Source: Antedon mediterranea
Taxonomy: Eukaryota; Animalia; Echinodermata
DNA: 64,000 bases
Assembly (NCBI RefSeq): GCF_964355755.1
Contig: NC_092679.1
Span: 20,319,432-20,383,431, forward strand
Direction: 5' to 3'
The translations under genes were made by a program, and so were the position numbers. Below are positions 1,585-62,119 of the stretch, in pieces (positions within the stretch are counted from its first letter, which is position 1; each line of letters starts with the position of its first letter). Below the pieces are notes generated by a model. The model worked only from the letters and a program-made list of their open reading frames with translations. It was not told the DNA's origin and ran no database searches.

Positions 1585-1927
1585 GCTACCTCGAATAGTG
1601 GACGCGGTACTTTCATCTGAAGTAATGAATGGATCAAAAGGGGTTGATCATTTCAAATCAGATGTATACTCTTTAGGAATAGTCTTATGGGAATTGTATC
1701 ACCAGAGGAAGCCCTATGAGGATCTGAATGTGCCAAGTATCATTCAGCACGTGGTTAACGATGGTCATCCAGTAATTGATGCTGAATGTGACGTACGGTT
1801 ACGTGATGTGATGCTAAAATGCTGGAATTACCAACCCGACCAGAGACCAAATGCGGAGCAGATTCTGACGTCACTAATTAACAAAACGAAAGATAGTTCA
1901 AAGGAAAAAGAGAAACATATACATAAA
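1585..1927 (+). pseudogene. Truncated, frameshifted TKL kinase exon (C-lobe only), paralogue of 15093-15914
   Basis: Near-identical to 15540-15914 (EVMNGS.GVDHFKSDVYSLGIVLWELYHQR...CWNYQPDQRP). It lacks the N-lobe/HRD/DFG and has an 11-bp deletion (ggatgtctcct) removing WMSP. It keeps the same donor, CATAAA|gtaag, at 1927. Confidence 0.85.
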
Positions 1928-2256
1928 GTAAGGATAGTAGTTGTTTTCTTTATTTAAGGTATAGAAGACGGTACGTCAAAATCTTAACGAATTGAACATG
2001 CATTATCCATATCTTAAGGAAATATTCTTGTCACTAGTTCGGTGTATTAGTCTAAGTTTAATCTGTACATAATCTGATCTATTTTTATTACTTTTGATTT
2101 ACTTTTGTAATTTATTGTCGTTTTAAAGTGTCTTCTTCTTCTTGGGCTCGTTTGACACTTGTGCCACTGTTTTTCGCAAAATACATCATTCGAGTCAATT
2201 TAATCACTTGGTTTTTCTTAATGGTAATATTCTTATCTTTTTTTTCTTATTGATGA

Positions 2257-5200
2257 ATGTTATGTTTACACGAAAATGAGCAGATCGAATTTCAACAATT
2301 GTTAACAAACCTCAGCAAAGACTATTTTGGTACAAAATGCCGTTGGTTAAAAATGCTTCTACATGATGTATATAGTGGAGAGTTAGAAGTTACCACTTCA
2401 GGAATTGACTTATTCAATGAACTTGTTGACATTGGAAAGATTTCAATTACTGATGTGACCCTTTTGTCAGAGGTTACTGAAACCACCGAACAGACATCGG
2501 CAAAAGATCGTATAGCCGAATATAAAAGGACTGTACAATGCAGTGAAACATTAGGAACAAGATTAACACCATATCGGAAGGCACTTTTTGAAGCCCTTAG
2601 GAATGTTGGGCCTAATGATTTACATACGGTTATTGGTTTTTACAATGTTAAATCCCATAAATTTGACAATATATGGGATGTTGTTTTCCACCTTGAGCAA
2701 CAGCAACTCTTAGAAGATACCAAAGAAAAGTGCAAACGGTTTGCAGATCTACTAAACAAAAAGACAGGAAGTACATTACTAGGTAAACACTCTTACTTGA
2801 TTAAAATATATTAATTGAAAGAATTTGTGTAGCCCCTTTCTCTCCTATATGGTCAGGGTAAAAAATATTGCCCAGAGTTAAATTTTCTGACACAAATGGT
2901 AATTTAAATCATCTGTCATATTTTTCCACAGCATCTCTCAAAACGTTGAAGTTAAGGTAAGAAAACGAACTTTAATATAATACTATATGATGTCTTTTCA
3001 GAAAATATGTTTGACATAAACAAATGTTTGTGTAATGTTTGATGGTTAAATCATGGAAGAGTATGATTTCACTCTTCCCTGGTTAAATACGGATGAAATG
3101 CATATGGGAAAACTCATCCAAGCGTGGCATGGGACATAGGTCATCAATCTTGAGTTTAGAAAGCTTACAGGTCCTTAATTACACATTTTCTTCAATAATT
3201 CAAATCTAATCGATACTTTGCAAATTTAGAGATGCAACCACGCATTTACTACTTCAACTAAACTTGGATACACAATCTGAACCAGACCGGACACCAAGCA
3301 TGAATCAAACGTCACTTGAAAACGAAATTGAAACAAATCAACAAAAGCAACGAGTGAACACAGTAAGGATAGTATGAACTGAGTCTTGTATTTAAGGCAT
3401 AGAAAGTCAAAATCATAGTCACTCAATCATTCATTTATTGGGGTTGTTTTATCATGTTTCTTCATCCAAACAATAAATATTATTATTATTATTTATGTTT
3501 TCCTAGATTCCACAATTGTTTGCCGCATGTTTTGTAATCGTAGTAGCGTTGTGTGCCGCCTATTCATTACAACTTGACAAAAGCAAATCATTTTCACAAG
3601 CTGTTATAGAATTTGAAGAAAACCCAGTTGCAGGAACAACAGAGCCAGTAAGTTACCTTTAAACTGTTGTATGCTAATAGACCTACTTGTACAAACGATT
3701 ATAATTAATTTAGCATTGTTTATGGTATACTTATTTCGTGTTTATAATAATATTACAGGTGGTATATGGTCAAGAAATGTCAGGTAAGTGGAAGTATTAT
3801 TCAACCACTGGTGATAAAACACATGAAACATATGCTATCGGTCGAAAGGTTATTACATAAAATTATGATACAAGCTATAATAGGTATCCTAGACGGCTAT
3901 TTCTAAATACGTTTTTGCTTTATGTCAGCCTCTACGAAAACGTCAATATTTTCGAAAAGATGAAAATGAAAAAATATAGGTCGAAATATTTAATATTTTT
4001 TTTAGTTTGATTAATATTATTGTAATATATAACATTATAAGAATTTAATTTAAATTGTATTTATATCTGACAATTGAATGTACGATTTTTGTTTTATTTC
4101 TAGGTCCTTCACAGTCAAACATGTTCGAAACATTTATCTGTGGTAATGGAACTAATATAACATTGCCTGCATATCCACAATACTTTAAATGCAACCAGTA
4201 CATTAACTGGACATTCACTACTTACACTGGAAGTTTGCTCTCTGTAAAATTATACGATTTCTATCTAGAGGGTCGCTTTGATTATGTTAATATTTACAGT
4301 GACGGAAACATTATTGGCAAGTTTACTGGGTACGATCGGTTCCTAGTTAACCCCGCAGCAAGTCTCCCATCAGACCTGATCATATCTAGTAATAACAAAA
4401 TAGCGATTTATTCCAAAGGATTTAAGGCCGAGGTATCTGTATACCCTGAAGCCCCAGGTAGGTATAGAGTCATGGAATTATATTTGTTTAGAGTGCACAA
4501 CGTCAACAAGGTTTCCAAAAACTGACATCCGACCGCCGGTGTCACAGATATTTTGTTCCGTTCCGTACCCTCAAACCGTCATCATCTACAGTAGTATCGT
4601 GATCTTAGATATCTAATTCTTAAAGAATAATTCGAACGAAGGCCTACATCTCTTGTGGTTTTAAATCCATATCTAAAAACCTTTATTTTATCTTAAGTGA
4701 AAGTAACAGGTAACATTAAGTGTGTACCAATAACAGACCAACAAAATATAAATGAAAGATATGTTAAAATCTTAACTTTTGAAAGATAAGAATATACAAG
4801 AGTATTTTATAAAGATACGTTTGTGCGTATGTGGGAGAATGTGTCACTTATTAATGCTTTAATATCTGCATGAACTTTTTTTAAAAATTCTCTAGCGGGT
4901 TTTTGTTGTAACTTTAAGCATGGAATGTTGCCTTCTGGCTGGACGCATGATCGTAACGCCAATTGGGAGATATCCTATAAAAGGTATTATAAAAAAAGAA
5001 ACAATGACAATGTCGATCTAGGAAGCCGTTACTCAAGATCAGGTAAATAATTTTTTATTCATATATTGAAAATCAATTCAATCAGTGACGACTCGTAAAC
5101 TGAACATACGTAAATATGTAGGCCTAATATAATTGTTTTGAGATGTTGAAAATACCTACTTTATAATTTCAGATGATTATTACATTTCTGTTGCAATAAA

Positions 5201-5606
5201 TTACGGTGACAGTGGAACCAGAAAAGAGGGTTATATTAATAGTCCAAACATACCAAGCAGATGGGATGAAGCATGTCTTAGATTTTATTACTATATTAGT
5301 GACGGAAATCCAGATCTACGAATTACTGTAGATTATTTTAAGCACCCTTATAATGCAAAGAACGTGTTCAGCGAACATGTTAGTTACAGTCAAAGATGGA
5401 AATCTGCAAGTGTTAATATCAGCATGGAGAAATCAGTTCTCCATGCTATCAGCAATGTCGGTTTAAACTGGGAAGAGTTCCTCCCTTATTTAAATACGTC
5501 CTACTTGATTATTGGTGGAGTAGCATCTGGTGACGATACAGCGATAGTTGCTATTGATGATATTTATCTTAGTGAGGGTGCTTGCCTTGATCATACAGCT
5601 CAGTAA
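2257..5606 (+). CDS. Unit 1: tandem DED - linker - TM - CUB - MAM type II membrane protein (~594 aa from ATG 2257)
   Basis: Phase-consistent exons 2257-2782 (DED-DED), 2932-2956, 3230-3362, 3507-3647 (hydrophobic LFAACFVIVVALCAAY), 3759-3783, 4104-4457 (CUB: YPQYF.CNQ...W...DFYLE..FDYV.IY...GKFTG...GF.A), 4896-5042 and 5173-5606 (MAM: C.F...GW...W, L/INSP, C.F.Y, VAIDDI..S.G.C). Total 1785 nt, no internal stops. The start is uncertain because the DED-exon acceptor is mutated (tttacac at 2265-2271). Confidence 0.75.
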
Positions 5607-7430: not shown

Positions 7431-8809
7431 TAAATCATATAAGCTTAGGAAATTAGAAATTAAAGTACCATCCTAAAACAAACTCTATATGATCTAGATA
7501 TCTGAGATGACATATATCCTGCTTCAAATAAGCTTCGACTAGGTTTTAGTCTATCTTTTAAACCGACGACAGTAAAAGTAGGCCTATAAATTATATTGTG
7601 CGTCTACGGATAGAATAATGTTTAGCTCAAAATGAAAAGTTTGGATGGGTATTCTAATTATAACTTTTGTATCTGCTAACCATTTAAATATTGTATCATT
7701 GCTTATTCTCTGACTATTAGTCAAGGAGCCCATGGAGATTTGTTGAGCACTACGACCATACCAACACCTCGACCTTTTGTTAGGAGTAGACGCTCAATTG
7801 TTAAGCTATCCGTTGGTACCATTTTGAAATACATAATACTGTAGTAGTGTGGCTTTACCAGCATCTACTTGTTTTTGGATGGTGACACCTGTTGTACAAT
7901 GTTGTCACAATTTTACAAATGCAGCACAGTGGATAAACATGTGAACAGCGAAATGAGAATGTTACAATTCTGTGGTTCGTCAAAATAGAGAATGCTGATT
8001 GAACCAATAAATTGAGTACTTGACTATAAGGTAGACGTGTTAATGTTTATATTTCACTTCGTGAGCATTCTTGTGTGACATGTTTTGAGACTTCTTTCCT
8101 GTCTTCCAGCAGATATAATAATAGATCTAAAAAAAGATCAAAGACATTATTCCTAATCCGGTCCATTACAAACAAAAATATCAAGACCAAAATCAAATAT
8201 CTACAGTGTATGATTACCAACTAATTCGTTACTAAAAATAAAATAGAATTCCATGGGCATGGAGGGTACGTCACTTGTAAACCGTAGTAGCGTACAGTAT
8301 GTCCCGAGCATTGTATCAGTAAAGCACTATCGTTCCAACTAAATAATAATTGTATCTAGACGTAATGTCCCCGGAACCACCGGTACGTGGCGCTGTACAC
8401 GACTAAAGCTTTAACGGGTAATGCATCCTCTCACCACCAGAATCCTTCATCAACAACAGTCATCCTCCAAGCACAGGAGGAACATAACACAAAATTATGT
8501 GCAACATCAAAGCAGTACACCAGTACATTGTAATCCCTTCACCATGCCTTTTAATATTTTTGAATTTTTTATTGATACAGTTTTTATAATTTACAGGATA
8601 TAGATGGATGTAAATAGTATCACATTTAAGAAGTTTCTGACAATACTCAGCGTAGCTTTACAGAAAAGATGAATATCAGAAAAAAATGAATATTTATGCA
8701 AACCATTTCCATACGCTTATATCATTCAAGTTTCAATACATCTTTGCGTACGATTGGTGACGTGAAATAATGTTCAAGCATCCTTGCAAACAAAATACGT
8801 TTAAGTGAA

Positions 8810-11800
8810 ATGGCAAGATATGATGACAATATCATGTTTAGTACCTTGAAATCTAATTTCAGTAAATGTTATGATTTTCAATCAAACTACAAATGGTTGA
8901 GATTCTGTTTATTTGACTATCTACCTATAGGTGACCTCACTTCAAAATCAACAAGTCAGTTACTAAATTGTCTTGACAATATAGGGGTTATTGCACCTGA
9001 TGATGTTCATCTATTATCAGAAATTGCTGAGCTTTCACGTTTGAAAAAAGCAAAAGTCATTGTAAATGAGTATATGAAGGGAAGTGGTCAAAAAAAGTCG
9101 GAAAGAAAATTGTCGGAATACAGGAAACAACTGTTTGAGGCATCACGAAACGTCGACGAAAAAGATGAGTTAAGTAGAATTATTTCTCACTATGGTTTGA
9201 GTGATGACGAATTCTCAACTATTTGGGATGTTGTATTTTATCTGGAGAAACAAAAACTTTTACAAGATAGGCCAGACGAAATATCGAGGTTTTCAGATTG
9301 TCTTAATCAAACCGCAAAGAATTATCTACTTGGAATTTGTATGTATTTTTCTTTGTTTTTTTAACAAGTATTCTAATACGTTAAAGTTAATTTCTAGATT
9401 AACGGTATAAACTAAAATTAGGCCTATGTATTGTGTTGAAAAACTAGATGTGTACTGTAAAGTTATATCTATGTTTTATTAAAGCCACTGAAGTACAGTT
9501 TTCTTTAAGAGAACGAACAACTGAAGATTCTGACGAACATAAACTGATTTTATCTACCTGTAATGACAAAGGAGAAATAATTGCATATTACCTCTATTTT
9601 CGTGGTTGCATTAAAGAGGTAACGATCACAGAAGGATCTATAGTATTCCATGTAACTTTAGTTGATCCCAGTGCCCTTGAAAAACTATGGAAGCTTCATC
9701 AAAGTGGGCAGCTTCTGAAAGATATAGCAGAAATACTTTTTACAGAGAAACGTCGAAAAGAGTTTGAACAGACTTGGGAGACACAGTTTGACCATCAAAT
9801 ATACAACGATGCTCTTAATAAGTTAAACGGAAAAGGTGAGGAATAAGTTAATTTATACCTGGATAATCTAAAAAAGGGATAAATTTACCAGGCCATAGAG
9901 GCCAAACTCCTGAAATGCTTTATGTAGGTATTATTGTATCCGTGATTACCGTTAGCCCATTATTAATTACCTAATTGGCATAAATTCAACTGCTATTTGA
10001 AAATGTTTACCTTAATTACACCAAACAATCTAGTAGCTTGTAATAAACAATGACACATTTGATTTGTTGTTTACACCACCACCACCATATAAAATATGGT
10101 TATCTCTTGAGACCATTAGCTATTATATTTTAAATAAGATTGTATCTAAATTGATATTTTAGAATTTAGCACATTTGTCAGATGTCACGAATTAATTTTG
10201 ATCTTATATATATATATATATATATCTCCTCTTGCTTCTTTTCTCGATCCAGAACAAAGACCAAATGTGGTGCAGAAACTAAAAACAGTTGTTCGTCGTA
10301 GAGCCAGGAAAAACGAGAATACAGTAAGGATAGTATGAACTTTTCTTGTACTGTAGACTTCACGAAGCTAAATCTTACAGTCCAAAGTGAAACAATTTCT
10401 AATGAATAATTATTGTTTCTTAATAACGTATTAATAGGTGTAAAACAATAATGATTCTTGTCTATTATTTTTCTGCACATGTTTATATTGTAGACTTTCA
10501 ATTATATTATAGTTATGTTTTTTCTATAACTGGTAAAGTATGGCAGAGGCAGCTGCGTACAACTTTCTAAAACCTAAGCTTGAAGATGGGTGCTGTGGTA
10601 TTTACAACTATATATTTTACGCGTACATTTATTACCGTGACACACTGTGCATCTGTATTATATTTCTCATATTGATATAAATACTTATTGATAACTTTTA
10701 TATTGACAGGATAAAGATCAAATCAAATGTCAACAGTTTCTATCAGACCTCAGCAAAGACTATGGTGGTGTAAAGTATCTTTGGTTAAGAATGCTATTAC
10801 ATAATAGTATACCCATTCAATGTTTAGAAGATAGCAAAACAGGACTTGAGTTATTCAATGAACTTGTTAAACTTGGAAAGATTTCAAATACTGATGTCAC
10901 CCTCTTGTCCGAGGTTGCTGAAACCACCGAACAGACATCGGCAAAAAAGCGTATAGCCAAATATAAGAAGAAAATACAATGCAGTGAAACAGGAACAAGA
11001 TTAACACCATATCGAAAGGCACTTTTTGAAGCCCTCAGGAATGTTGGGCGTGATGGTTTACATGATGTTATCAATTTCTACAAACTGATAGATCGTAACT
11101 ATGACAACATATGGGATGTTGTTTTCCACCTTGAGCAACAGGAACTTTTAGATGATACCCAGGAAAAGTGCAAACTGTTTGCAGATTTACTAAACAAGAA
11201 AGCACAAAATATTTTACTAAGTAAGTCAGACTTAATCTTATTTGATCAAATGTAATTATACTACTGTACTCTAGTACATTTTTAGTTTCAAATTGGATAA
11301 TTTTCCAATGAGTGTAAAAAATATTCGTTGCCATTGTTTGAAAACATGCCTCTACAGAGTTGAACTTGGTGAAATATTTAATTCGATTCTTTAACATTCT
11401 CGTATGGAAAACGGATAACTCGACCTTGTCTTTTTTTTTCACAGATGCTGTCAATAATAGGTAAGAAAATGGCTAAAAATAACGTTTAAAAAAAAGAATC
11501 AGGTTGGGATTGCCTTATCCAAGTATGACTTGTTGCGTTAAGAATATATACAGTAGCTTGGTTATAGTCCTAAATTATTAAAAATATGACTAAACTTTCT
11601 TAATTTAGAGAAGCAGTACCTCTTCAGAAGAGAATAATTCAGAAAATGAAAAGCAAACAAATATTTACAGTAAGGATATTATAAACTAAGTTTAAGTCTT
11701 ATATACTTGTTGTTTTCATCTTTTAACTGTTTTTTCGACCATAATTATATAATGGACACTGCCATAATATGTGAATAACCCTACCGCTGTTTATATCGCA

Positions 11801-13387
11801 GGTCCTATACAATGTCTTTGAGTTAGTTTATATGTTATATACAGTAGATGACATGAGTAAATATCTTTATTTATATATTTATATTATTTTTTTTAGGTTT
11901 AACTCATTGATTCGTGTTTGTGACTTTTGGATAAGCTTGAACAAAGTTCTAAACCATAATAATTAATTTTGTCTTATATCTGTTTTCTAGCCTAACAACT
12001 GGTATTGGATACCTGCACTGTTATTGGTTGCTTTTGCAATACTACATCACTTATCAGGGCATATGAAGGAAAATAATCGTAAGCAAATCCTTAAAATATC
12101 CCAGTTCTTTAATCTTAAATCTCTAAATTATAAGTTTGCGCAGTTGTGATTTGTTTTTGTGTGGTAGGCCTACTAGAGAGGAAGATGATTTGACTGAAGC
12201 TTTACAAATATTCGTAAAATATTGTTATTAATAGGGAGGTTTCGCAACCTTACGAATACGATAACGAAAACGGATACGTCATACATTTGTGAAACTTTTG
12301 AGCTGATCCCCATTTCATATTCGTAAAGCGTATTCGTGTTGTTTGACGAACATCACCAGTCATATTCGTAACTACAAAACGAGTATAGTTTTTTTTATCT
12401 ATTTTGCACATTTTGCATTTGAATCAGGAATGATTCATGATTCATGATTATAATATAATTATAGATTTATTGAAAGTAATTTACTAAAGTAATTTACTAA
12501 AAAGACAAGTCAATTTTGATAAATAGCAGTTTTTAAAGTCCTCACTGGCTTTGATGTTACGCTAGGCCTAGGCAGCCAAGCACCAAGCAACACGTACCTG
12601 CGCTTCGCTCAAATTTACCGCAGTCATATTTTGGACGCGCCTCAATATTTCGTTGCCATGCGAAACAGATTTTTTTATGGCTTACGAAAACGAATACGTG
12701 TGCTTGACGTATCCGTTTTCGTTATCGTATTCGTAAGATTGCGAAACCTCTCTATTATTCTTTTGTTTGTATTTAGATTGTATTCATAATGATTTCAACC
12801 ACAACAAATTTCCGTGTGCTAATTGGACACATCATGGTGCCAAAAAATGGATGTTAGGAAATGAAAGATATAATGTCGGCTACGATTTAGGAAAAAATTA
12901 CTCAGGAGGATCAGGTAAAATGATGTCATACATTGTAAATCAGAAAATTCATACAATTTTTGCTTACCAATAACGACAAATGAATTGATCCTTTAATTAA
13001 CTGATGATGTATGAAATGGTGTCATGTAAGTCCTACTTTATATTTGCAGGTAACTATTACATTTATGTTGCAAAAAGTGATGAAGAATCCATAAAAGAAG
13101 GCTGGCTTAACAGTCCAAAAATACCAGACGAATGGGACAATGTGTGTATTGCATTTGATTTTTACAATAGTAACAATGATTCACGAATTAAGTTATATCG
13201 TATTACTAATGACAAAGACAAGGAAGTCATCCAAATTCCTTATAACAAAGGGGAATGGAAGCGTCTTTCTATCGATAAGCCTGTTAATACCAATACTTAT
13301 CACTATCTGATTGGCGGATTAGCATCTGGTGACGGTCAACAACTAGTTGTTCTTGACAATATTTTGATTAGTAAGGGCAAATGCTAA
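8810..13387 (+). CDS. Unit 2: divergent DED-DED - TRADD-N-like domain - DED-DED - TM - MAM (~730 aa)
   Basis: Phase-consistent exons 8810-9338 (divergent DED pair), 9485-9835 (TEGSIVFHV...ALEKLWKLHQSGQL, TRADD-N-like), 10163-10323, 10710-11220 (DED pair), 11445-11460, 11609-11669, 11991-12078 (WYWIPALLLVAFAIL TM), 12777-12914 and 13050-13387 (MAM). Total 2193 nt, open throughout. Confidence 0.72.
12233..12753. mobile_element. MITE / non-autonomous DNA transposon in a unit 2 intron
   Basis: ~48-bp terminal inverted repeats (agggaggtttcgcaaccttacgaatacgataacgaaaacggatacgtc / gacgtatccgttttcgttatcgtattcgtaagattgcgaaacctctct). Flanked by AT on both sides. No ORF. Confidence 0.85.
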
Positions 13388-14089
13388 GTTTACTCTGGAT
13401 TTATGATACAGTGTGTGATAATGTGTAATATAATGTAATACTCAATGAATTCCAACAATGACTTAACAATACGAATACCAACTATAATGTTCTTTCACTC
13501 CACTCCTTTTTTTCATTTTGGTTTATTTCCTTTCTATTATATAGTATTACTATTTTGTTTTTACAATTTATGATTTTATATTTTATATTTAGTTTCAAGA
13601 AAATCTATATTTGTGTATTCTTTTAAACCATAATAATCATATTTAATAATTTGCATTATTTGTATAATACTAAACTTTTAGTCTGATTTGAGAAGAATGA
13701 TTTTGTTTTTATTTGTTTTCTCTAAGGTAAAGCTTTGTATAATAAATATATATTTCTCTGTTATTCTATTATTTATTTGTTAATTAGACGGAGTTTCATT
13801 TGATTAAATTTAAATAAATATTAAGGTGATAAGTGAGTACAACTTTCTAAAACATAAGCACATGTTTGCGCTATGAGCATGGTAATGTAGTCTATACTGC
13901 ATATTAGATCAGGGAGATAAAAATAGATTGTTATACCTCCATGATTAGATGTATAACTATAAGAGGGGAGGAAAAGAAATACGTCCAAATCTATATTTAG
14001 TATGGCTTCTACCTTACACTATTTCCTAAGACGCAATCATGGTTCACTTGGCTGATATGCATTTTCAATGATGAAAATACTGTCGTAAT

Positions 14090-14300
14090 TTCCTACGTTA
14101 CTCACAAGTAGGCTCTCTCTCTCTCGCACCAGCAGTTAGAATCAAAATCATTCATAGCAAATTGTATTTTTATACTTTGGGAATTTTCTTTTGTCAGTAA
14201 AACGTATTGAAATTAATTCATCATGCATATCAACAGTGGTATGTAAACATAATTTTGTTTAAAATGGTGGCCAAGGCTAAATACAATATATCAGCACGGT
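14090..14300 (+). promoter_or_regulatory. Promoter block / non-coding first exon of unit 3
   Basis: Homologous to 6655-6860 and 22590-22765. kB-like GGGAATTTTC at 14179-14188. Donor agcACG|gtaagt at 14298, where unit 5 has agcATG|gtaagt. Confidence 0.5.
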
Positions 14301-15092
14301 AAGTGTGTACAGCGTATTTTTTACAAATTATTCCAGCAGCAAAATAATACCATCTGTACAACTAATATTGAATCTGATATTTCATTATCCTCTTTATCGA
14401 GTGATGTTACTATAGGCATGTTTATTTCAGTGTAAAATTATATTGCGTATTCGTATTCATATAGGCCTACATAGGATTGAAATGGTGTGTTTCAATGTGA
14501 TTCTGAACAGTAAGATATTTTAGCCACATAAAAAACCTATATTATTTTAAAATTCAGGAACAGTAACCGTTGACAACTCGTGTTCCTAGACATAACTCGA
14601 TAATCTCCACACGTACAGAGGGTCTACAAACTGTAGAACATTATAATGTTAATACAGGATTCATGTCTGTAATTTCAATAATGATTACGAGCATAGCAAC
14701 TTCTTATGCAGAATAATGCATGCCATACGCACATCGTTTTTTTCTTATTGATGAATTATTTATTTACAGGATAATTATTAAATTTAAGCAGTTTTTAACC
14801 GTTCTCTGGAAAGCTCAAGTTTACCGCAATTATTAAATATCCCTTGTACCATCCTAGAGGGTGTGAGCGCACCTTCAAGTACTTTTGAATTTGTTGTCGA
14901 TTTGCAGTTACGTAAAATAATTATGTTTGATATGGTCGTCTTAGTTATCGATCTAGATATCTAGGATACCACTACGGCTCCATTTTATTTTATTCTTTTG
15001 TATTTCCAGTTTGTATTGAAAACAATCCATGCATTTAATTCGTGGTATTGATTACGCGTTTGTATACAATATAGTCAAATCAGGGGCACTAA

Positions 15093-18040
15093 ATGGATAA
15101 CTTGAAAATATTTAAACAAGAAGATATCGAGATCAAGCAGCAGTTGGGAGGTGATTATAAGTTCAATGTGTTTTTAGGAATTGTGAAAAAAACTGGCAAT
15201 TTAGTAGCAGTGAAAAATATCAAAGTTGACAAACGGGAGTTGGATATATTGAAAGAGCTACGGCACGCAAATGTTATCCGACTGTTAGGAACTATTGACC
15301 GTGACACGTCAACAGGGTTAGTGCTTGAATACGCACCCAAAGGAAGCCTATATGATTTCTTAAATATTAGGCCTATAAATCACTATGACTATTTAGATTG
15401 GTGTAAACAGGCCGTACGCTCGGTCGTGTATATCCACGATCGAGCCGTATCGCATAGAGATATAAAATCTAAGAATTTTTTAGTTTTTGGAGATAATATC
15501 AAGCTAATTGATTTCGGATTGTCAAATGATGTCACTTCAACTACCTCGAATAGTGGATGCGGTACATTTATCTGGATGTCTCCTGAAGTAATGAATGGAT
15601 CACAAGGGGTTGATCATTTCAAATCAGATGTATACTCTTTAGGAATAGTCTTATGGGAATTGTATCACCAGAGAAGGCCCTATGAGGATCTGAATGTGCC
15701 AAATATCATTCAACACGTGGTTAATTATGGTCATCCAGAAATTGATGCTGAATGTGACGTACGGTTACGTGATGTAATGCTAAAATGCTGGAATTACCAA
15801 CCAGATCAACGACCACACGCGGAGCAGATTCTGACGTCACTCGATAACGGAACTGAAACATTTGTCAGAAGTCGTTCCAAGAAAAAAAAGAAACAAATAT
15901 CAGGCATACATAAAGTAAGCATGTCATGACTTTTTCTTTTCGACAAAAACGTACTGTAACAACTGAGCATGCAGATTTTAATATATTTGATAGCGTTCTG
16001 ATTTTGATATTGACCTGTTCTTTTAATGGTATTATATGCCTATCTTTTTTATCGATAAATTTTACATTATTTTCAGGACAATCATATCGAATTTAGAAAG
16101 ATCAACCAACCAGATCAACGGCCACATCCGGAGCAGATTCTGACGTCACTCGATAACGAAACAGAAACATTTGTCAGAAGTGGTTCCAGGGAAAAACAGA
16201 AACAAATATTAGGCATACATAAAGTAAGAATATAACAACTGAGCATGCACATTGTAATATATTTGATATTCTATTTTTAAATTGACCTGTTCTTTTAATG
16301 GTATTATATGCCTATCTTTTTTATCGATACATTTTACATTATTTTCAGGATACTCATATCGAATTTAGAAAGCTTCTATCAGATCTCAGCAAAGACTATG
16401 TCGGTTTAAAGTACCGTTGGTTAAGAATGCTTCTACATGGTATTATACCTATTGGATGTTTAGAAGTTAGCACTATAGGACTTCAATTATTCAATGAACT
16501 TGTTGAACTTGGAAAAATTTCAAAAACTGATGTAAGCCTTTTGTCAGAGGTTGCTGAAACCACTGAACAGACATCGGCAAAAGATCGTATAGTCGATTAT
16601 AAAAGGACTATACAATGCAGTGAAACATTAGGAACCAGTTTAACATCATATCGAAAGGCACTTTTCGAAGCCCTCAGGAATGTTGGGCTTGATGATTTAC
16701 TTAAGGTTATTGGTTTTTATAAACTTAAAGACTATGGCTTTAACAATATATGGGATGTTGTTTTTTACCTTGAGAAAGAGAAACTCTTAGACGATACACA
16801 GGACAAGCTAAAACTATTTGCAGATCTCCTGAACGAAATGGCACGAAGTATTTTACTAGGTAAATTAGACTAGAGAAGATTAAGAGGATCTCGGACAGTA
16901 TACTGTTAATCTTTTCTAAATTGGGAGTATCATTATCATTGGTCTAGAAAGTTAGTTATAAGTGCATTGATTTCTCAATGGATAGCATACCCTTACCATA
17001 GATTATTATGAACAACTATTGCCTGAGCATATTTAAACTTGGGGAAAGGTTTCATTAGAGTTTTAATCTTAAAATGTATTTATGAAATTGTAGAACACGT
17101 TAAATGTTTCCATTTATTCCTTTCAGCAGCCGCTCCCAAGACTCTGGAAAGAAGGTGAGAATAATGACTTCACCAAAAGTAATCTTAATGAATTACCTCT
17201 GAAAAATAAATATAATTGTCCAGCAATGACGTAATGGTCAAATTGTTTGTATATTATATGTAGTTAATGTATTTATGCTTACACCATGATGCTGGAATTG
17301 GATTAAATTAATTAAATTGACAATTCTCATCCCTTTGTCCGAAAAGTAGTCCCATTAAAAAATATTTGAAACGCTTTTAGCATCAGTCCATATTTATTTA
17401 ATGCGATAATACTGTCCAAATATAGAGAGAAAACCAATTCTTCACCACACGTCAATGCTCCTTTGGATTGGCAAAAAGAAGGACTCAGACGAATAAAGGA
17501 AAATGATCTTAAGAGAAATTATTCTGGGACGGTAGGCTGTCTATCTATTAAGTATAACTGAATTTTTGAAATAGAAAGGAGTAGTTATTGGACCTTGTTC
17601 TGAACCCCTGACATTATATTCCAATTTGACACTAATAAATAAACATTTCTGTCGTCTCACATGACACTGGTTTTGTGAAGACGCGTTGGCCTCCAAAACG
17701 ATAGTTTAATAATGTCCGTGTTTTCATTGTAGCTTAATTATGTATTTTTAATTGGCCTGGTATTTTATTGTAGGTCTGTTCATAACGATCTTTGTTCCAA
17801 CGTTAGAAAAAGAAGATAAATAACTTGTTATTTATTTTAACATTACAGGTGAGAGTATATGATCGAGAATTCAAGTTTGATGGTGGCCATGAATGGTGGA
17901 AGTTTTTTTCAACAGCTACCGATATTGCAACTGGGATTAAAGCGAAAGCTGGGGGTTACAAATCAATGGGCGGGGCAAATGAACATGCTATCGAAAACCT
18001 CATTTATAAACTAATGGCGCAGGGTATCATAAGAAATTAG
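15093..18040 (+). CDS. Unit 3: TKL-group Ser/Thr kinase - DED-DED - ALF-like domain, no TM (552 aa; 601 aa with optional exon)
   Basis: Exons 15093-15914 (VAVK, ELDIL, HRDIKSKN, DFG, GTFIWMSPE, KSDVYSLG..LWEL, CW...RP; MLK/ZAK-like TKL), optional 16077-16223, 16349-16859 (DED pair), 17127-17154, 17426-17531 and 17849-18040. Phases 0/0/1/2/0 all match. 1659 nt without the optional exon. Confidence 0.8.
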
Positions 18041-19184: not shown

Positions 19185-19306
19185 CTCCGGAATTCCCCTT
19201 TATATGAATTGTGTACATAGCACACTCAGTGGATTATAGGTAATATCATTGTTGTGTTGTATGACTTCCTCGTAATCATATCGACACGTACACCTTGTAA
19301 AACATG
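19185..19306 (+). promoter_or_regulatory. Promoter/first exon of unit 4 with consensus kB site
   Basis: GGAATTCCCC at 19189-19198 (reverse complement GGGGAATTCC). The block is nearly identical to 7290-7413 and ends in ATG|gtaagt (19304-19306). Confidence 0.55.
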
Positions 19307-22191
19307 GTAAGTACAACGTATTTTGAACAAATTGTAAACACTTTTAGGATTAAGAGAGTGAAAATACCATTTTAAAACAAACTTTATGTAGACCTAATCT
19401 AGATATATGAGATGCCATTTTTATTCTGCTTAGAATAAGCTGTAGGCTTCGAATTAAAGAACCTAGTACATCTTTCGAGACGAGTAGGGGGTTACCCCGG
19501 TGTATTAGTACATCACAGCCACTGATCACCAATTGGGCCCTCTGGGAGACCAGTCTTTGACTGAAGAGGTTACCCAGTATAAATATAAATTTCAATTCAA
19601 TTCAATTCAATAGGCTGTAGGCTTCAAATAGGCTGTAGGCTTCGAGTAGGCTGTTGTCTATCTAGTTATGGACAACAGAAAATTATCAATCATATTTCTT
19701 CTGTGCGCCTACTGTACGGATAGGATGATGTTTAGCTAAAATACAAGTTTGAATGGATATTCAAATTCTGTATCTGCTACACACTTCAACAGTGTATTAC
19801 TATTTATGTTGTAACTATTACGACATTGATATTATTCTATACCTCCTTCAATACGCCAAGTCATGTAGCCGTTTGTTGTTTTGTGAATTGTGTTTTAAAA
19901 TCATTACCGCAACACTTAACAACAATAGGCCTGGTACGTTCGAAATCAAAGTTAATCACATTACTTTGTTCGCCTACTGGAAAACAAGCTTAACACAGAC
20001 ATTTGTCAATATTGCTCGTCGTAAGCTAAGCCATTTTTTAAATGTAAATGTAAATGTAGCCATCTTTTTTCTCATTGATATTTCATTTATTATTTTACAG
20101 GATACAGACCAGATCAAATTTAAGCAGTTTCTAACAGATCTCAGCAAAGACTATGTTGGTTTAAAGTACCGTTGGTTAAGAATGCTTCTACATGGTGTTA
20201 TTCCCATTCAATGTTTGGAAGTTAGCACTACAGGACTTGAACTGTTTAACGAACTGGCTGAACTTGGACAAATTTCAAATACCGATGTTACCCTTTTGTC
20301 TGAGCTTGCTAAAACAACTTCTCAGAAATCGGCAAAACAGCGTATAGCCAAATATAAGAAGAAAATACAATGCAGTGAGACATTAGGAACCAGTTTAACA
20401 CCATATAGGAAAGCACTTTTTGAAGCTCTCAGAAATGCTGGGCCTAACGATTTACTTAAGGTTATTGGTTTCTACTCGCTGAAAGACTATAACTTTGACA
20501 ATATATGGGATGTTGTTTTCCACCTTGAACAACAAGAACTTTTGGATGATACCCAGGAAAAGTTCAAACTGTTCGCAGATCTTCTAAACAAAAAAACAAG
20601 AAGTGTTTTTCTAGGTAAGTCAGACTCACTCTTACTGGAATTATACATTTCTGGTTTTTATTTCATCTCTAAACTTTTTTTTCGATTCTAAATTGAGTGA
20701 GGTGTTAAAGATGTTAACTGTCTCATTAATTATTTTTCCACAGCTGCTCTTAAGACTCTGAAAAGGTAAGAAAATGAAATTTACCAACAATTTATAATTT
20801 TGTTAGTCAGACTAACAAAAAAAAAGTGTAAATGTTTGTGAACTAGATGAAAGGGGTTTGATTTTCAAGATATATAGGCCAATAATTGATACTTGGATTT
20901 AATAAATGCAACATATTTGTTTGCCAATCTCGTTGTCTGAAACCGACACCGAGTCTTCAATTATCTTAAACTATAATAACGGTATAATAAACTTTATAAA
21001 ATTAGAGATGCAACCACAACTTCACCTCAACTACTGGATACACAATCCGAACCAAACCTTCAGCGTTTTCTCAAACTGGACAAAAGACCAAATGTGGCGA
21101 GGTACTTAGCAGGAATACATACAGTAAGGAGAGTATGAACTTTTTAAAATGTATAATAGGCTTAGTGAAGTCAACATTCATTTTTCGTACAATGTTTATA
21201 TTGTTTTATTTTGTACTGAGGTCATTATAAGTCGTGATTGTAAATGACACAATCAGAGTTTCCTCGTCTCAATTACGTTACGCATATTCTAAATTATTAT
21301 TCTTGTATGATATTCATCTGTTTTCTAGACTGTTCGTATATATTGGCCATGGATAGCACTGAGTATATTAATCATGTTCGTCGCCATTCAACTTCCAAAA
21401 TTCAACTTACCATTAACCCCCAAAGCGCCCTCAAGAGATTGGCAAGCGGAAGGGCTCAGACGAATGAGGGAAAATGATCTTAAGAATAATAAACGAGGAA
21501 CGGTAAGACCTTTTTAACTAATTTACAAATATACTATATGAAGTATAATATCTGAATGTTAGGAATTATTATTATTTAAATTCCTTCATTCTGATTAAAT
21601 AATAAGAAGAGATGCGCCTGGTAACTGAGATAGCTGCCCAATTATCTTCGTCATTGCAGTTACAAAACTGAATTGCAAGTATAAAATTCACAATAAAGTG
21701 GGTAAAAAGAGAAAAAAAAAACCAGTAACAATCTATATTTAGAAATTATTTAAACCTCCCAATGATATTAGAATTAATTAAGTAATTTATAAACGGTTAA
21801 TGTGTACCATGGAACACCAGGAATAATAAATAATAAATAACATTTTTTATTGATTATTTAAAATATTATCTGGATACACCCGCATGCGACAAGGCGGCAT
21901 ATAACAATGATTAATGCTGCTAATCTTATATTATTCTTTCTTTATTTTTATTCTGTTTTTTTTTTTGTGAATACATATTTGTTTATTTTAATATCACAGG
22001 TGAAAGTATACGATCGGGAATTCAAGTTTGAAGGTGGCCATGAGTTTTGGAAGTATTACTCGACCGCTACTGATGTTGTAACTGGGACCAAAGCGGAAGC
22101 TAAGGGGTATCAGTCAATGGGTGGGGCCAATGAGCATTCTATTGAAAACCTCATTTATAAGCTCATGGCAAAAAAATCGATTAAAAATTAA
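19304..22191 (+). CDS. Unit 4: DED-DED - linker - TM - ALF-like domain, type II membrane protein (340 aa)
   Basis: Exons 19304-19306 (ATG), 20101-20614, 20744-20765, 21006-21123, 21329-21502 (YWPWIALSILIMFVAI TM then RDWQAEGLRRMRENDLK) and 22000-22191. 1023 nt in frame. AATAAA at 22378. Confidence 0.8.
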
Positions 22192-22760: not shown

Positions 22761-25700
22761 ATGGTAAGTAGGCCTACAGTTTACCAATAGCAAAAAAATA
22801 GCATCTTTACAACTATATTTGAATCTGATATTCCATTATATTCTCGTCTATTTCGAGTGATGTTACTAGGCATATAGTTTATGTTACCATCGACGTGGGC
22901 CTACAATGTAAAATGATATTTCCTCGGTGTAGGCCTACGTCTAAATAAATGGGTGCTATTCAGGGTGGTGCTAGTTGATTCTGAACTAAGATATTTTAGT
23001 CAATGTAAAGTAAGTATGTATTTTAAAAGTCATTCACTAACCGTTCTCTCTAAATTTGTGTTCCAATTACCCACACATAGGTCTACAAATGTACATCGCA
23101 TGATTCATGTCTAATCTGCCAATGCTTATGACTCGTCGTCATATCATAGGAACTTTGCCTAATGTCATATAAGTCAAACATTTTTTTCATATAGATAATT
23201 GTTATATTACAGGATCATATAGATCAGCGATTTTTAACAGACCTAAGTGAAGACTATGTTGGTTTAAAGTATCGTTGGTTAAGAATGCTTCTGCATGGTA
23301 TTATACCCATTGGATGTTTAGAAGTTAGCACTACAGGACTTGAATTATTCAATGAACTTGTTGAACTTGGAAAGATTTCAAAATCTGATGTAACACTTTT
23401 GTCAGAAGTTGCTGAAACCACTGAACAGACATCGGCAAAAGATCGTATAGTCGATTATAAAAGGACTATACAATGCAGTGAAACATTAGGAACCAGTTTA
23501 ACATCATATCGAAAGGCACTTTTTGAAGCCCTCAGGAATGTTGGGCGTGATGATTTACTAAAGGTTATTGGTTTTTATAAACTTAAAGACCATGGCTTTA
23601 ACAATATATGGGATGTTGTTTTCCACCTTGAGAAACAGGAACTCTTAGAAGATACCATGGAAAAGATCAACATTTTTTCAAATCTACTAAACAAAAAGAC
23701 AGGAAGTAAATTACTAGGTAAATCAGACTCTTACTTAATATAATATACATTTCTGTTTATAAATTAGTGTTATTAGTAAAGTAAGTTTTTAGGGAACTTG
23801 GAGAGTTTAAAAAAAATATTAATCATTTTTTTAATGGAAGTTGGTGAGTTTTAGAGTCCAGTAACCATTGCTATATAATAGCTTGCACATAAATACACTT
23901 TGGTGGAAGATGTCATTCGGGTTTGAAACATTTAAAAAAGTTCTCGTATATATTACAGTATCTTCTCTAAAAATGAACAAATATTATGAAAAACACAAGT
24001 TAAATCATTCTTCTGTTTTCCACAGCTGCTGCTTCCAAGACTCTCGCAATTAGGTAAGAATTAATGATTATTAAAACATGGAATTTTATTTATTATTTCG
24101 GTTTTGTAAACTGTCTTCATCCAATCAGGCCTGTATAAGAAAATAAATTACCACTATTATACTGTATTAAAAACGTTAAATATATTGTAAAAACTTCCCA
24201 AATTTAGAGGAGCAACTGCACCTTCACCTCAAGCAGACTTGGATGGACGGCTAGCTTCACAATCAAAATCAAATCCTCTTTTGGCAGCACCTTCCCAGGA
24301 TTTTCAACAAGAAGAGCTCAGACAAAGAGAGGAAAATAATATTACCAAGAAAAGTGATGTCAGTGGAACAGTATGTTTTGTTTAAATTATTAATTAACTA
24401 ATGCAGCCTATATAATATGTATTTGATCGGTTTATCAGTCTTGACATCTAAATAATTTTCAAAAAAAAAACAACACCGCCTTTCTTTTCCTTCAGTCGAT
24501 TCAAAGTTCTCTGACGTTCACAACATTTTAGGCAGTTTTAAAATTGTTTATAATCATGCTTAGACCATAGATCAAACGCATAGCAGAGTTTGACGTCACT
24601 CATACCGAAACTGAAACAATTGTATGGAAAAACAAACAAATTAGGTTGTTATGAATTGTATTAACTTGTACGTAAATATCTAGTCCAAGCGTCAAACAAT
24701 TCTTCATACACAATGTGTAGATTTGTTTTAAACAAGGTGAAATTATTTTGTAATTTTTATAAGGCCTCTTAAGTTACGGTATACGATATCCACTCGACAT
24801 TATAATTAGTTTAATCAGGGAAAAGTTAAATTACATTTAAATCTTCCCTGGTTTAATTGACATGTGTAACATTGGTATTGACTACGAATCAATCTGGTTA
24901 TTTCTTGACCAAATTCCAAGTAATTATTTCTTTCTTCTGTTTCCTAGTCTGTCTACAGATATTGGCCATTGATAGCACTGAGTATTGTGTTGTTGGCGTT
25001 AGTTGCCAATATATACCCTTATAAAGTTGATGAAATACGACTTCCCCTATTCGAACAGGTAACCACGCCTTCACCACAGCCACACTCTGATGGCATAGAA
25101 CCGGTAGCACAACCAGTTACGGAACCAACCACAAAACCAGTTGGAGCAACCACCGAACCTACGAAATTTATATTGCCATTAACCCCTACAGCGCCCTCAA
25201 GAGACTGGTCGGCGGAAGGGCTCCGACGAATGAGGGAAAATGATCTTAAGAAAAATATGCGTGGAACGGTAAGACCTTTTTACTAGTATTAAAAATATAT
25301 AATATGAAGTATTATCTAAATTAACCAAATTCCTTTCATTCTAATCATTATAGTGAAGCGTAGTCGATTTCTTTCCTGGCCTGGTAATGCCAGCCTAGTA
25401 TATTTTTTAATATGTTTTGCCTTTCACTTTATTATCTTCACCATTGCAGTTACAAAACTGAATTGCAAGTATAAATTTACAATAAATTTGTAAAAAGAAG
25501 ATAAAAAAACCAGTAACAACCTATATATAAATTTGACAGATATGAAGAAATTCCTTAAACCGACCAATGATATTAGAATGAATGTTTTAAACGGTTATTG
25601 TGTACAACAGAACACCAGCAAAGATAAATGATAAATAAATTTGTTTATTTCTTATTTACAATATTATCTAGGATACACCTGCATCATGCGAAAAGAAGGT

Positions 25701-25987
25701 ATTATAACAATAACTAATGCTAATCTGATATACTATTCGTTCAGGTGGTTTTTGTGAATACATATTTGTTTATTTTAATATCACAGGTAAAAGTATACGA
25801 TCGGGAATTCAAGTTTGAAGGTGGCCATGATGTTTTGAGTTATCCCTGGTATTACTCGACCGCTACTGATATCGCAACTGGGACCAAAGCAGAAGCTACG
25901 GGGCATCAGTCAATGGGTGGGGCTAATGCTCATGCTATTGACAACCTGATTTATAAGCTCATGGAACAAAATTCGATTAAAAATTAA
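22761..25987 (+). CDS. Unit 5: DED-DED - linker - TM - Thr/Pro-rich stalk - ALF-like domain (406 aa)
   Basis: Exons 22761-22763 (ATG), 23213-23717, 24026-24053, 24208-24370, 24948-25268 (YWPLIALSIVLLALVANIY TM; TTPSPQP...TEPTTKP...TTEPT stalk) and 25787-25987. 1221 nt in frame. AATAAA at 26165. kB-like GGAATTTCC at 22627. Confidence 0.8.
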
Positions 25988-42373: not shown

Positions 42374-42675
42374 GCATTGATGAAGGGCTAGTGTTTCCCG
42401 AAAGCTCTGCTAACTTTTCTGGCTGTTTTACTTCTCGTTTTGATTTAGCTTTTCGCTTTTATTTTGTATCTCCATTGAGATCCAGCCACTGATACCCACA
42501 GCATTGTCATTTTTTCAGTAATTTGCCTTTAGATTGATAAATATATATATATATATAAATCCAAAGGCAAATTACTGAAAAAATGACAATGCTATAAATC
42601 CAAAGGCAAATTACTGAAAAAATGACAATGCTGTGGGTATCAGTGGCTGGATCTCAATGGAGATACAAAATAAAA
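42374..42675 (+). mobile_element. Penelope-like element pseudo-LTR fragment with partial inverted duplication, in (TA)n
   Basis: 42458-42534 is repeated in inverted orientation at ~42597-42674, with an extra 39-bp tandem copy at 42555-42593. (TA)n tracts at 42360 and 42541. Hammerhead-like TTGATGA-aGGG...CCC-GAAA at 42377-42403. Confidence 0.6.
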
Positions 42676-47023: not shown

Positions 47024-47468
47024 TCAATTGTGTTATATTGTTGATAGAAAAACTTAATAACATTATCTAATATGTTGATCTTGTCGATCATCACGCGACA
47101 ATAATCGTGTAACTCACCACATTACTGTTAAATACCACACCAGGTTAAGTTATGATTTACCGACAACATTAATGTAATTATGTCTATAATAGCCGTTAGA
47201 AAAATTTGACACAATTCTGTGACACTATGATAGGTTTAACGGGTGTTGCTGATGTGATAATTCAGGCTGTTGAAGAAAGGCCTCATTGGATTTACGAGGA
47301 AGATTAGCAGACACGCGGCTGCCGCGCGAACAACTTGTGTTTTTACGCGGAATACGGCTACGGCAAAATGTAAAGGGGTATAATAAAATAATGTAGATAA
47401 TAATGGTAGATTCAAAATAGTCGCGCGAAAAAATCGGCTTAACGTTCACGATGGAGTTGTAAACCTAA

Positions 47469-47620
47469 AGCTTTGTTCACACTAGCGACGCAACGCAAGG
47501 ACGTAACGCAACGTAAGTGATTTGACCAATCGCAAGCGATGGATTATTCGAAGAATGGCTTGTCATTGCGCTTGCGTTGAGCGTACGTCCTTGCGTTGTG
47601 TCTCTAGTGGAAACCACGCT
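47469..47620. mobile_element. MITE family B copy
   Basis: agctttgttcacactagcgacgcaacgcaaggacgta ... tacgtccttgcgttgtgtctctagtggaaaccacgct. TAA/TTA flanks. Confidence 0.8.
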
Positions 47621-48034
47621 TTAGAAATCGTGTTTAATTTTTAAGGATTGGAAAAGCATGTCAGCTCTAAAGGTATCATAATTGTCTTATTGTTGTTCTT
47701 ATTACTTTAATAACACGTTTCACGCACGTCAATATCTCGTTCAATTCAAGCGCGTTCATTTGAAACTAATTTTCTTTAGCGTTCAGTTAGAAATAACGCA
47801 AGTTATGAACACGCTAAGAAAACAATCAACACATATGTCATCATCTTTTGTTATCATTTTTGTTGTGGCCGTATATACTTTCAATTATGGAACGCTTATG
47901 AGATAACAATAATATTTCATTACATACCTTCAAAGATGTATTTCCGATAATAAACGAATGAAAGACGTTGAAATTATATATATATATAATATTAATAACG
48001 TATTTTGGTCACCAATGAATAATATCCATAGAAT

Positions 48035-49070
48035 TGAGAATAGACTAAAGCCAAAACAAGTGAGAATAGACAAAGGCCAAAACAAGTGAGAATAGACAAA
48101 AGCCAAAACAAGTGAGTATAGACTAAAGTCAAAACAAGTGAGAATATACTAAAGCCAAAACAAGGGAGTATAGACTAAAGCCAAAACAAGTGAGAATAGA
48201 CTAAAGTCAAAACAAGTGAGAATAGACAAAGGCCAAAACAAGTGAGAATAGACTAAAGTCAAAACAAGTGAGAATAGACTAAATCCAAAACAAGTGAGTA
48301 TAGACTAAATCCAAAACAAGTGAGTATAGACTAAAGTCAAAACAAGTGAGAATAGACTAAAGCCAAAACAAGTGAGAATAGACTAAATCCAAAACAAGTG
48401 AGAATATACTAAAGCCAAAGCAAGTGAGAATAGACCGTAAAGCCAAAACAAGTGAGAATAGACTAAAGTCAAAACAAGTGAGAAATAGACTAAAGCCAAA
48501 ACAAGTAGGCCTAAGAATAGACTAAAGCCAAAACAAGTGAGAAATAGACTAAAGTCAAAACAAGTGAGAAATAGACTAAAGTCAAAACAAGTGAGAAATA
48601 GACTAAAGTCAAAACAAGTGAGAATAGACCGTAAAGCCAAAACAAGTGAGTATAGACTAAAGTCAAAAACAAGTGAGTATAGACTAAAGTCAAAAACAAG
48701 TGAGAATAGACTAAAGCCAAAACAAGTGAGAATAGACTAAAGTCAAAACAAGTGAGAATAGACTAAAGTCAAAACAAGTGAGTATAGACTAAAGTCAAAA
48801 CAAGTGAGAAATAGACTAAAGTCAAAACAAGTGAGAAATAGACTAAAGTCAAAACAAGTGAGAATAGACTAAAGTCAAAACAAGGGAGTATAGACTAAAG
48901 TCAAAACAAGTGAGAATAGACTAAAGTCAAGACAAGTGAGAAATAGACTAAAGTCAAAACAAGTGAGAATAGACTAAAGTCAAAACAAGTGAGAAATAGA
49001 CTAAAGTCAAAACAAGTGAGAATAGACTTAAGTCAAAACAAGTGAGAAATAGACTAAAGCCAAAACAAGT
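48035..49070. repeat. 26-27 bp minisatellite (gtgagaatagactaaagtcaaaacaa)n, ~39 copies
   Basis: Head-to-tail units without spacers. Variants gcc/gtc/tcc, gaat/gtat/gaaat. Confidence 0.95.
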
Positions 49071-61097: not shown

Positions 61098-62119
61098 GGT
61101 TTGGGCTAGTGATGATGTAATCAATTCAAATCAATAATCAATTAACCATATGTTTTTTTTTTACTTGAATTTTTCTTGAAGTATACAATAATACTCGGGG
61201 TGCTGCACCGTTGTCAATTTATATTTGTGCCTGAAATTACCTGCAAATTGAATTAAATAAAATAAAGTATGTATGTGACACGCACGTAATAAATGTGACC
61301 AACAGTCAATCACGTTATATTAAAGTGCACTTTAGTATTTTAGTCCTCGAATTGTACTCGCAAGTATATTGCCTGTTATGGTAAAAGTGTAACCGTATAA
61401 TTATAAAAACATTAACTTTCTCAGTTTTCGATTTGTACGCCTTGAACGTGATGTTCAACTTTTGCGTTAGCTTGGTAATTGATCACGTGGACAATGTTAT
61501 ATCATTAGACATGTATTGACAGTTTAGAGCAATATTGTAGGTCTTAATGGTGTGATTTACGAAGTGGGCGGGAGGGAGTACAACATGTTTAGACTATGAA
61601 CTCGTACAAGTACGCAGCAGCAATGTTGTTCAATCGTTCCTCGTACCCTCTCCCAACCAACATAAAAAAAATGTCATTATAGCGTTCCATAATAGGTTTT
61701 GTAAATTGTATTGTTCCGTTAATATCAGGGAAGGGCAATAAAATACACGGAAATCTAATGTCAACTTGCTACAATTCGCGGTATCTTTTCCCCATGGTTA
61801 ATACGGATATTTGCCACCGACGTTACATTAGCAATAAAATTGAAATTGCCTGAAAACTAATGATGCTTGTTAGATACGTTTGAATTCACTTAAAGATGCA
61901 TCTGAAACATATTGATAACAATGTTTGATTGTTTATGATAGAGTTTTTGTTTCAGAAAAAAAAACCAAGATCAACTTTGGGGGTTTAGTTACATTAATTG
62001 TTCAAGACTAATATTGATTCCGTTCATTTAAAAAAAAAAGATATTTTATCTATAATCGAGTGGTGAGAGATCTCGTTGAACAAAGGACAGGAGGACAGTT
62101 ACGTTCTCCCCTAGTATAA

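Follow-up and report, generated by a model that had tools for sequence, protein, structure and literature searches.

A 64,000 nt stretch of contig NC_092679.1 of the crinoid Antedon mediterranea (hereafter the window) contains a cluster of related genes, likely for immune receptors, and the one analysed here, unit 3 (15093..18040, plus strand), would place a protein kinase, two DEDs and a domain resembling the anti-lipopolysaccharide factors (ALFs) on one chain without a transmembrane segment. It belongs to a crinoid family whose members consist of an N-terminal kinase and/or tandem DEDs, one transmembrane segment and an interchangeable ALF-like or MAM ectodomain, and within this family unit 3 is a member from which the transmembrane segment is missing. 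We tentatively favour, at somewhat less than an even chance, the reading that its product is a soluble cytosolic kinase-DED-DED-ALF-like signalling partner of the membrane paralogues; it is not a proven sensor of lipopolysaccharide (LPS), the role put forward for it in an earlier note made from the sequence alone.

Gene model and transcription of unit 3

The five-exon model of the earlier note (15093-15914, 16349-16859, 17127-17154, 17426-17531 and 17849-18040) gives a frame of 552 aa that is open throughout with GT..AG at the splice sites. The first exon (15093..15914) encodes a single-exon Ser/Thr kinase of the tyrosine kinase-like (TKL) group, 274 aa long and predicted from Pfam, motifs and solved-structure matches to be DLK/ZAK/TAK1-like; the second (16349..16859) encodes the tandem DEDs in 170 aa, recognized through Pfam, a PDB sequence match and predicted structures. 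These are followed by a mini-exon (17127..17154), by a linker exon without a transmembrane segment which holds the first helix of the ALF-like domain (17426..17531; placed by a transcript contig, alignments and the structural model), and by a last exon which carries four strands and the C-terminal helix of the Cys-less ALF-like domain together with the stop codon (17849..18040; placed by the same contig and by structure searches).

Evidence on transcription comes from a single study through its run X1, which is probably of RNA. None of the runs listed is recorded as RNA, and X1 was taken as such because GT..AG joints occur in it and in none of the runs X2-X4. It has no cover at 14046-15067, 15652-15797 and 15944-16235; these gaps were not used as evidence, and contig depth cannot rank exons. 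A single 610 nt contig of X1 joins 16859>17127, 17154>17426 and 17531>17849 with nothing between, and therefore the form of the gene that runs from the DEDs to the ALF-like domain without a transmembrane segment is transcribed. X2 and X3, which come from one sample, have DNA contigs that cover 17148-17927 without a break, which argues against a lost piece of the assembly there. Together with the translation, these contigs rule out a hidden transmembrane exon between the DED exon and the last exon, in agreement with the earlier note on this absence and on the splice 17531>17849. It should be said that transmembrane segments were called on hydropathy alone, which does not separate them from other stretches because the peak of unit 3 (1.62, inside DED1) exceeds the weakest true transmembrane segment (1.57). 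A stretch with a hydropathy of 2.4 in the intron behind 15914 was rejected as an AT-rich frame without exon support. Near the end of the last exon (18022-18040) the X1 contig differs in two residues (Gln to His, Gly to Cys) and in its stop codon, which is allelic variation.

The annotated protein of the locus, P0001 (Antedon mediterranea, named by its source), has 439 aa and, as do P0002 and P0006, matches window exons letter for letter. It uses an alternative acceptor at 17130 for the mini-exon and includes an in-frame exon of 49 aa (16077..16223, phase 0-0, without X1 cover) which was absent from the earlier model and which, added to the full kinase, gives a chain of 601 aa. In this exon the start of the DED exon is joined to a duplicate of the kinase tail, the result of a tandem duplication within unit 3 (15796-16100 against 16105-16372). 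Further upstream we found a putative non-coding first exon region (14152..14298, plus strand, without X1 cover), with the first exon of unit 5 as its homologue (DNA alignment score 178, shuffle maximum 77), and a putative 5' untranslated part of the kinase exon (15010..15092, plus strand) with a pyrimidine-rich acceptor whose tract is 84% pyrimidine. The donor of the former reads ACG/gtaagt where the counterpart in unit 5 reads ATG/gtaagt, so that a whole DED1 in unit 3 would likely need the ATG of the kinase exon. A second ATG/gt upstream of unit 3 (13879-13883) could start a kinase-skipping transcript.

Kinase, tandem DEDs and ALF-like domain

The kinase scores 161 bits against Pfam Pkinase and its VAVK (38-41), HRDIKSKN (121), DFG (140) and SPE (163) motifs are intact; these motifs and a degenerate Gly-loop had been noticed before and are all present, the Gly-loop being degenerate in all five aligned relatives too. 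Among solved kinases the best full-length matches are DLK (124 bits), ZAK (117) and TAK1 (115), the top row of the list being an EGFR construct placed there by the sum of two domains of 67 bits each, and no RIPK occurs among the best 60 of 532 PDB rows. RIP kinases carry a RHIM, DD, CARD or ankyrin tail where unit 3 has DED-DED-ALF-like, and the RHIM core tetrad, used as the motif for the RIP-kinase tail, was not seen by eye in the unit 3 translation. Judged from its sequence, the kinase is DLK/ZAK/TAK1-like and of MLK type, and not RIPK-like as first described. It shares the HRDxKSxN and WMxPE motifs with TAK1 and with the MLK-family MAP3Ks DLK (MAP3K12) and ZAK (MAP3K20), and its relatives in Anneissia are named MAP3K12-like by their source. 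It differs from the MLK family in the DEDs and ALF-like domain that follow the kinase, in the degenerate Gly-loop and in having transmembrane paralogues; the leucine zipper that follows the kinase in DLK and ZAK was not found in Pfam scans of unit 3, where the DED exon stands instead.

Both DEDs of the earlier note were recovered, DED1 by Pfam (E-value 1.8e-8; 35.0 bits, slightly below the 35.9 cut-off) and DED2, which has no Pfam match, by predicted structure alone (TM-score 0.74 to the DEDs of caspase-8/10, between predicted models; feature score 0.85, of lead level). The two give no BLAST alignment with each other. The closest PDB sequence match of the DED exon is a DED of cFLIP (E-value 7.7e-5), and the tandem DEDs of cFLIP and caspase-8 rank first, as a weak match, for a tandem-DED model of low confidence (pLDDT 56); no branch of the DED tree was supported (0 of 6). 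Like cFLIP, caspase-8/10 and viral FLIP, unit 3 has two DED-like folds, in its case both within one exon, but in the crinoid family the DEDs stand behind a kinase or before a transmembrane segment, and Pfam scans of unit 3 and its relatives found no caspase protease domain.

The last domain is ALF-like in its predicted fold, as had been proposed. Its 85 aa model (pLDDT 84, the best of five, the others reaching 37-59) has the order helix, four strands, helix (H-E-E-E-E-H), the third, short last helix of ALF not being predicted. Three structure searches with this model put ALF on top: Foldseek with shrimp ALF 2JOB (E-value 0.019, TM-score 0.59), the VIA wide structure search with 2JOB again (Z 8.8, root-mean-square deviation 4.2, 85 residues aligned) followed by double-stranded RNA-binding domains (dsRBDs) at Z 7.5, and Atlas with PF11630 clusters (TM-score 0.75; feature score 0.78, a lead only). 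Pfam has no match for the last exon, sequence searches of PDB did not reach ALF, and none of six crinoid domains matches PF11630 directly. A transitive sequence link exists: a profile of these six domains retrieved 44 proteins, and 18 of the 39 non-crinoid finds scanned match PF11630, 13 of them above the cut-off (one was left out for length). The domain shares with the ALF/scygonadin family (PF11630; PDB 2JOB) the predicted helix, four-stranded sheet and helix, and differs in having no signal peptide, no disulfide and a shorter, neutral hairpin. Crustaceans and horseshoe crabs are the animals from which ALFs are known, in the form of secreted peptides. The family has been described as exclusive to chelicerates and crustaceans (PMC6213531). 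In contrast to the free mature peptide, the ALF-like fold of unit 3 is the C-terminal domain of a deuterostome signalling protein, a chain of 439-601 aa whose N-terminus is a kinase.

Other ALF-like architectures were seen on the way. P0008-P0020 (JGI and other records, P0017 being from amphioxus) contain between 2 and 5 ALF-like repeats that are poor in Cys and mostly cationic; in several of these proteins a transmembrane segment at the N-terminus precedes the repeats, and most of the proteins exceed the PF11630 cut-off. P0039 and P0057 (ENA records) combine an AIG1/GIMAP GTPase with a stretch of charged helix and, at the C-terminus, an ALF-like domain, and have no transmembrane segment, the profile match of P0039 being weak (E-value 1.8e-4). 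P0042 and P0061 (ENA records) have a helical N-terminal part before the ALF-like domain; a CARD-like N-terminus in these two was an impression by eye with no Pfam or PDB support, and was dropped.

The crinoid receptor family and the window

Searches with the last exon and with the DED exon retrieved 7 and 8 proteins, all crinoid; beyond the window the cluster is represented by annotated proteins only. Next to unit 3 lie unit 4 (19304..22191, plus strand; identical to P0002, with three spliced joints in X1) and unit 5 (22761..25987, plus strand; P0006, of which P0005 is an annotated isoform without a transmembrane segment), both composed of tandem DEDs, a transmembrane segment (exon 21329-21502 in unit 4; exon 24948-25268, with a Pro/Thr stalk, in unit 5) and an ALF-like ectodomain, with no kinase exon. 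This DED-DED-transmembrane-ALF layout is matched by a DED-DED-transmembrane-MAM layout in P0049 and P0050, the former corresponding to unit 2 (10245..13387, plus strand), where a kinase-tail remnant precedes the tandem DEDs. Unit 1 (1610..5606, plus strand) has a kinase C-lobe remnant, tandem DEDs, a hydrophobic exon and CUB and MAM exons; its N-lobe is lost, its DED exon is without a clear AG acceptor, and no annotated protein of this unit is among the 8 matches of the DED-exon search. Chains with both kinase and DEDs are represented by P0003 (kinase-DED-DED-transmembrane-ALF) and P0048 (kinase-DED-DED-transmembrane-MAM). Anneissia has P0004, a kinase-transmembrane-ALF protein, and P0007 (Anneissia japonica), a kinase-ALF protein without a transmembrane segment which groups with its own transmembrane-bearing paralogue (support 85/97).

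Lysine and arginine are more numerous before the transmembrane segment than after it in 7 of 7 members that have one, and MAM, CUB or Pro/Thr stalks follow it, from which we infer a type II topology with the kinase inside and the C-terminus outside. The ALF-like domain would therefore normally be an ectodomain. The cytosolic location predicted for it in unit 3, where the transmembrane exon is missing and the N-terminus is a kinase, stands; as the transmembrane relatives carry the domain as an ectodomain, this location probably arose secondarily and does not have to reflect selection for sensing in the cytosol. At its 5' end the unit 3 linker exon weakly resembles the exon that precedes the transmembrane exon in the paralogues (above all shuffles in two of three comparisons), and at its 3' end it resembles either the end of a paralogue's transmembrane exon or the corresponding preceding exon of unit 5 (scores 110-130, shuffle maxima 78-82); the linker can be explained by loss of a symmetric transmembrane exon or by an internal deletion. 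Skipping of the transmembrane exon comes easily in these genes, since it preserves the frame in units 4 and 5 and P0005 is annotated without the segment.

Bacterial PASTA kinases (PknB/PrkC) have an N-terminal kinase inside, one transmembrane segment and a C-terminal ectodomain that senses the cell wall; they share the inverted topology with the membrane paralogues, but the ectodomains are unrelated and the likeness is an analogy only. Domain shuffling of immune receptors is known in invertebrate deuterostomes (PMC2575513), and in the amphioxus 'shortcut' hybrid immune genes (TNFR-caspase, DED-NACHT) receptor and effector domains have likewise been shuffled onto one chain within an expanded family, although no kinase-DED-ALF or type II kinase layout is described in the excerpt of that account (PMC2575513). 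An ALF-fold ectodomain on an inverted kinase/DED receptor, with a derivative that has lost the transmembrane segment, appears to be undescribed, as no literature was found on ALF with echinoderm DEDs, on type II DED, kinase or MAM proteins in echinoderms, or on ALF-kinase fusions (subscription journals and supplements were outside the scope of the search).

Elsewhere in the window, 8771-9846 holds a divergent tandem-DED exon (44% to unit 3) and then an exon with a match to the TRADD-like N domain (PF20694; 24.5 bits, cut-off 23.7), with an ATG/gt first-exon candidate at 7411. On the minus strand an open frame of 256 aa (3-770), which we take to resemble a LINE ORF1, runs off the window edge upstream of the broken unit 1 kinase. 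There is also a satellite of 39 copies of a 26-bp unit (48035-49070), a repeat of about 160 bp scattered in either orientation (27987, 35604, 37617, 54497, 58919, 62114-62511 and 63332) and a set of long inverted repeats (42457-42675 and 47465-47624).

Function of unit 3 and competing explanations

On the reading of unit 3 as a soluble partner, the membrane receptors would be clustered by a ligand through their ectodomains, the tandem DEDs would nucleate a DED assembly, and unit 3 would enter it through its own DEDs and so supply units 4 and 5, which have no kinase, with one of MLK type; mitogen-activated protein kinase (MAPK) or cell-death signalling would follow. The retained ALF-like domain may aid oligomerisation or membrane contact and would bind LPS weakly at most. 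All steps after splicing are our inference. That a full-length active kinase-DED chain is produced from unit 3 we consider probable, because the frame is open, the annotation joins the exons, two annotated paralogues (P0003 and P0048) have kinase and DEDs fused in frame at the corresponding position, and the first-exon-like donor has no ATG.

Several observations weigh against this picture. P0001 begins only with the second kinase Met (Met162, at 15576), which leaves out the N-lobe and the catalytic loop (HRD). Neither the splice 15914>16349, on which the earlier model relied, nor 16223>16349 is among the 5 joints listed for X1, and the sole joint there from kinase tail to DED, 15860>16350, has non-canonical ends with 29 letters on its short side and is out of frame at face value. 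Unlike cFLIP and its kin, DED1 is without the RxDL surface motif of DEDs at the position aligned to cFLIP. The transcript evidence is a single probable RNA run from a single study, and the ALF-like domains without a transmembrane segment on other cytosolic-type proteins (P0039, P0007) fit a sensor equally well. For the last exon of unit 3 dN/dS (the ratio of nonsynonymous to synonymous substitution) is 0.17 against unit 4 and 0.13 against unit 5, compared with 0.58 between units 4 and 5, and its terminal branch is short (0.07), but dS is near 1 in this exon and the ratios are pairwise and not branch-specific. The DED exon likewise has a dN/dS well under 1. As far as these ratios go, the ALF-like domain appears to have been kept in unit 3 despite the missing transmembrane segment, which argues against simple decay.

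The truncated annotation and the state of the joints would also fit a main product without an active kinase, either DED-DED-ALF-like or the N-truncated P0001, serving as a soluble DED decoy like cFLIP-short or the viral FLIPs, an alternative we regard as unlikely but serious. Among the X1 contigs listed none connects N-lobe and DED exon, the DEDs of unit 3 have their best solved match in cFLIP, and remnants of the 3' end of the kinase exon before or inside several units (1610-1935, 10245-10338, 16105-16223 and 24562-24669) show that decay of the kinase exon is frequent here. However, the kinase exon of unit 3 reads through 274 codons without a stop and has every catalytic motif, and X1 contains an N-lobe contig, 94% identical, in which none of the listed differences (14 of 18) is a stop. 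Nor is the start of P0001 informative on the full kinase, because Met162 follows Met1 with no other Met in between, and a transcript model incomplete at its 5' end would in any case begin at this residue.

The role put forward in the earlier note can be widened to that of a one-chain cytosolic sensor whose ALF-like domain would bind a microbial lipid or glycan (LPS or other), cluster the protein and activate kinase and DEDs; in our view this is a little less likely than the decoy but likewise a serious alternative. It draws on an ALF-like fold obtained from four approaches, on the conservation of the domain although the transmembrane segment was lost, and on the two proteins already mentioned, the kinase-ALF protein P0007 with its hairpin of +5 and the GTPase P0039. 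Caspase-4/5/11, HyCaspA and CgCas1-2D similarly combine a small ligand domain and an effector on one cytosolic chain, but these are proteases with measured LPS binding (PMC10361584, PMC12122919), whereas the effector of unit 3 is a kinase with DEDs and its ligand role is putative; Hydra HyCaspA binds LPS partly without charge (PMC10361584), and oyster DSRM domains, of similar fold, bind it weakly, in the micromolar range (PMC12122919). Against a sensor stand the unproven join of kinase to DED in X1, the failure of all six crinoid domains to match PF11630 directly, and the features of the hairpin. ALFs have a disulfide-closed hairpin of 20 residues (PMC6213531), and ALFPm3 has seven charged LPS-binding residues, of which ALF group D keeps two and binds LPS 20-fold more poorly (PMC3701609). 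The 85 aa domain of unit 3 has no Cys, and its hairpin is of 18 residues, about 4 shorter than in most relatives, with a net charge of 0 where 32 of 33 matched repeats in multi-repeat relatives have +3 to +7 and 20 of 22 single-domain relatives +1 to +7. In a by-eye alignment about two of the seven residues are retained (the Lys31 and Arg58 positions), the same count as in ALF-D, with three in shifted register (PMC3701609). The hairpins of the membrane paralogues are as neutral (net 0, -1, +1 and 0), and therefore nothing marks unit 3 as LPS-specialised. The evidence is thus against LPS binding by unit 3 in the ALF-B mode, and the LPS-sensor role of the earlier note is doubtful and not supported; P0007, with its cationic hairpin, is the better candidate if its gene model is right. 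Slightly more doubtful than the one-chain sensor is the wider proposal that the ALF fold is an ancient pattern-recognition module, wired directly to signalling enzymes, which in crinoids serves inverted receptor kinases with tandem DEDs as their ectodomain, and that loss of the transmembrane exon would turn it into a one-chain cytosolic microbe sensor firing an MLK kinase and a DED assembly without a caspase; that loss would have occurred twice if P0007 is real.

We think it very improbable that unit 3 is a decaying duplicate without a selected function, as the loss of the transmembrane segment, the internal duplication, the many remnants nearby and the possibly frameshifted joint in X1 might suggest, given its open frames, its spliced transcript and the low dN/dS of its ALF and DED exons. 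A PKR-like sensor of double-stranded RNA, with the last domain as a dsRBD, is more improbable still: dsRBDs do rank behind ALF in both fold searches and one relative, P0017, has a faint dsrm match (E-value 0.027), but the sequence links lead to PF11630 and not to dsrm, unit 3 lacks the pair of lysines on which dsRBDs rely where their last helix begins, and its relatives carry the domain as an ectodomain.

Returning to the soluble partner and its membrane-bound relatives, two crinoid genera have type II kinase/DED receptors whose predicted ectodomain is a Cys-less ALF fold, exchanged for MAM or CUB-MAM in sister genes, with related domains in amphioxus and in eukaryote-like records. The ALF family thereby becomes wider, and animals would seem to have a receptor layout that has not been described so far. 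The neutral hairpin of unit 3 and the cationic one of P0007 form a natural pair for comparison in a small domain that is easy to express, and if the form without a transmembrane segment does sense a cytosolic ligand, it would be a kinase-based counterpart of caspase-4/11.

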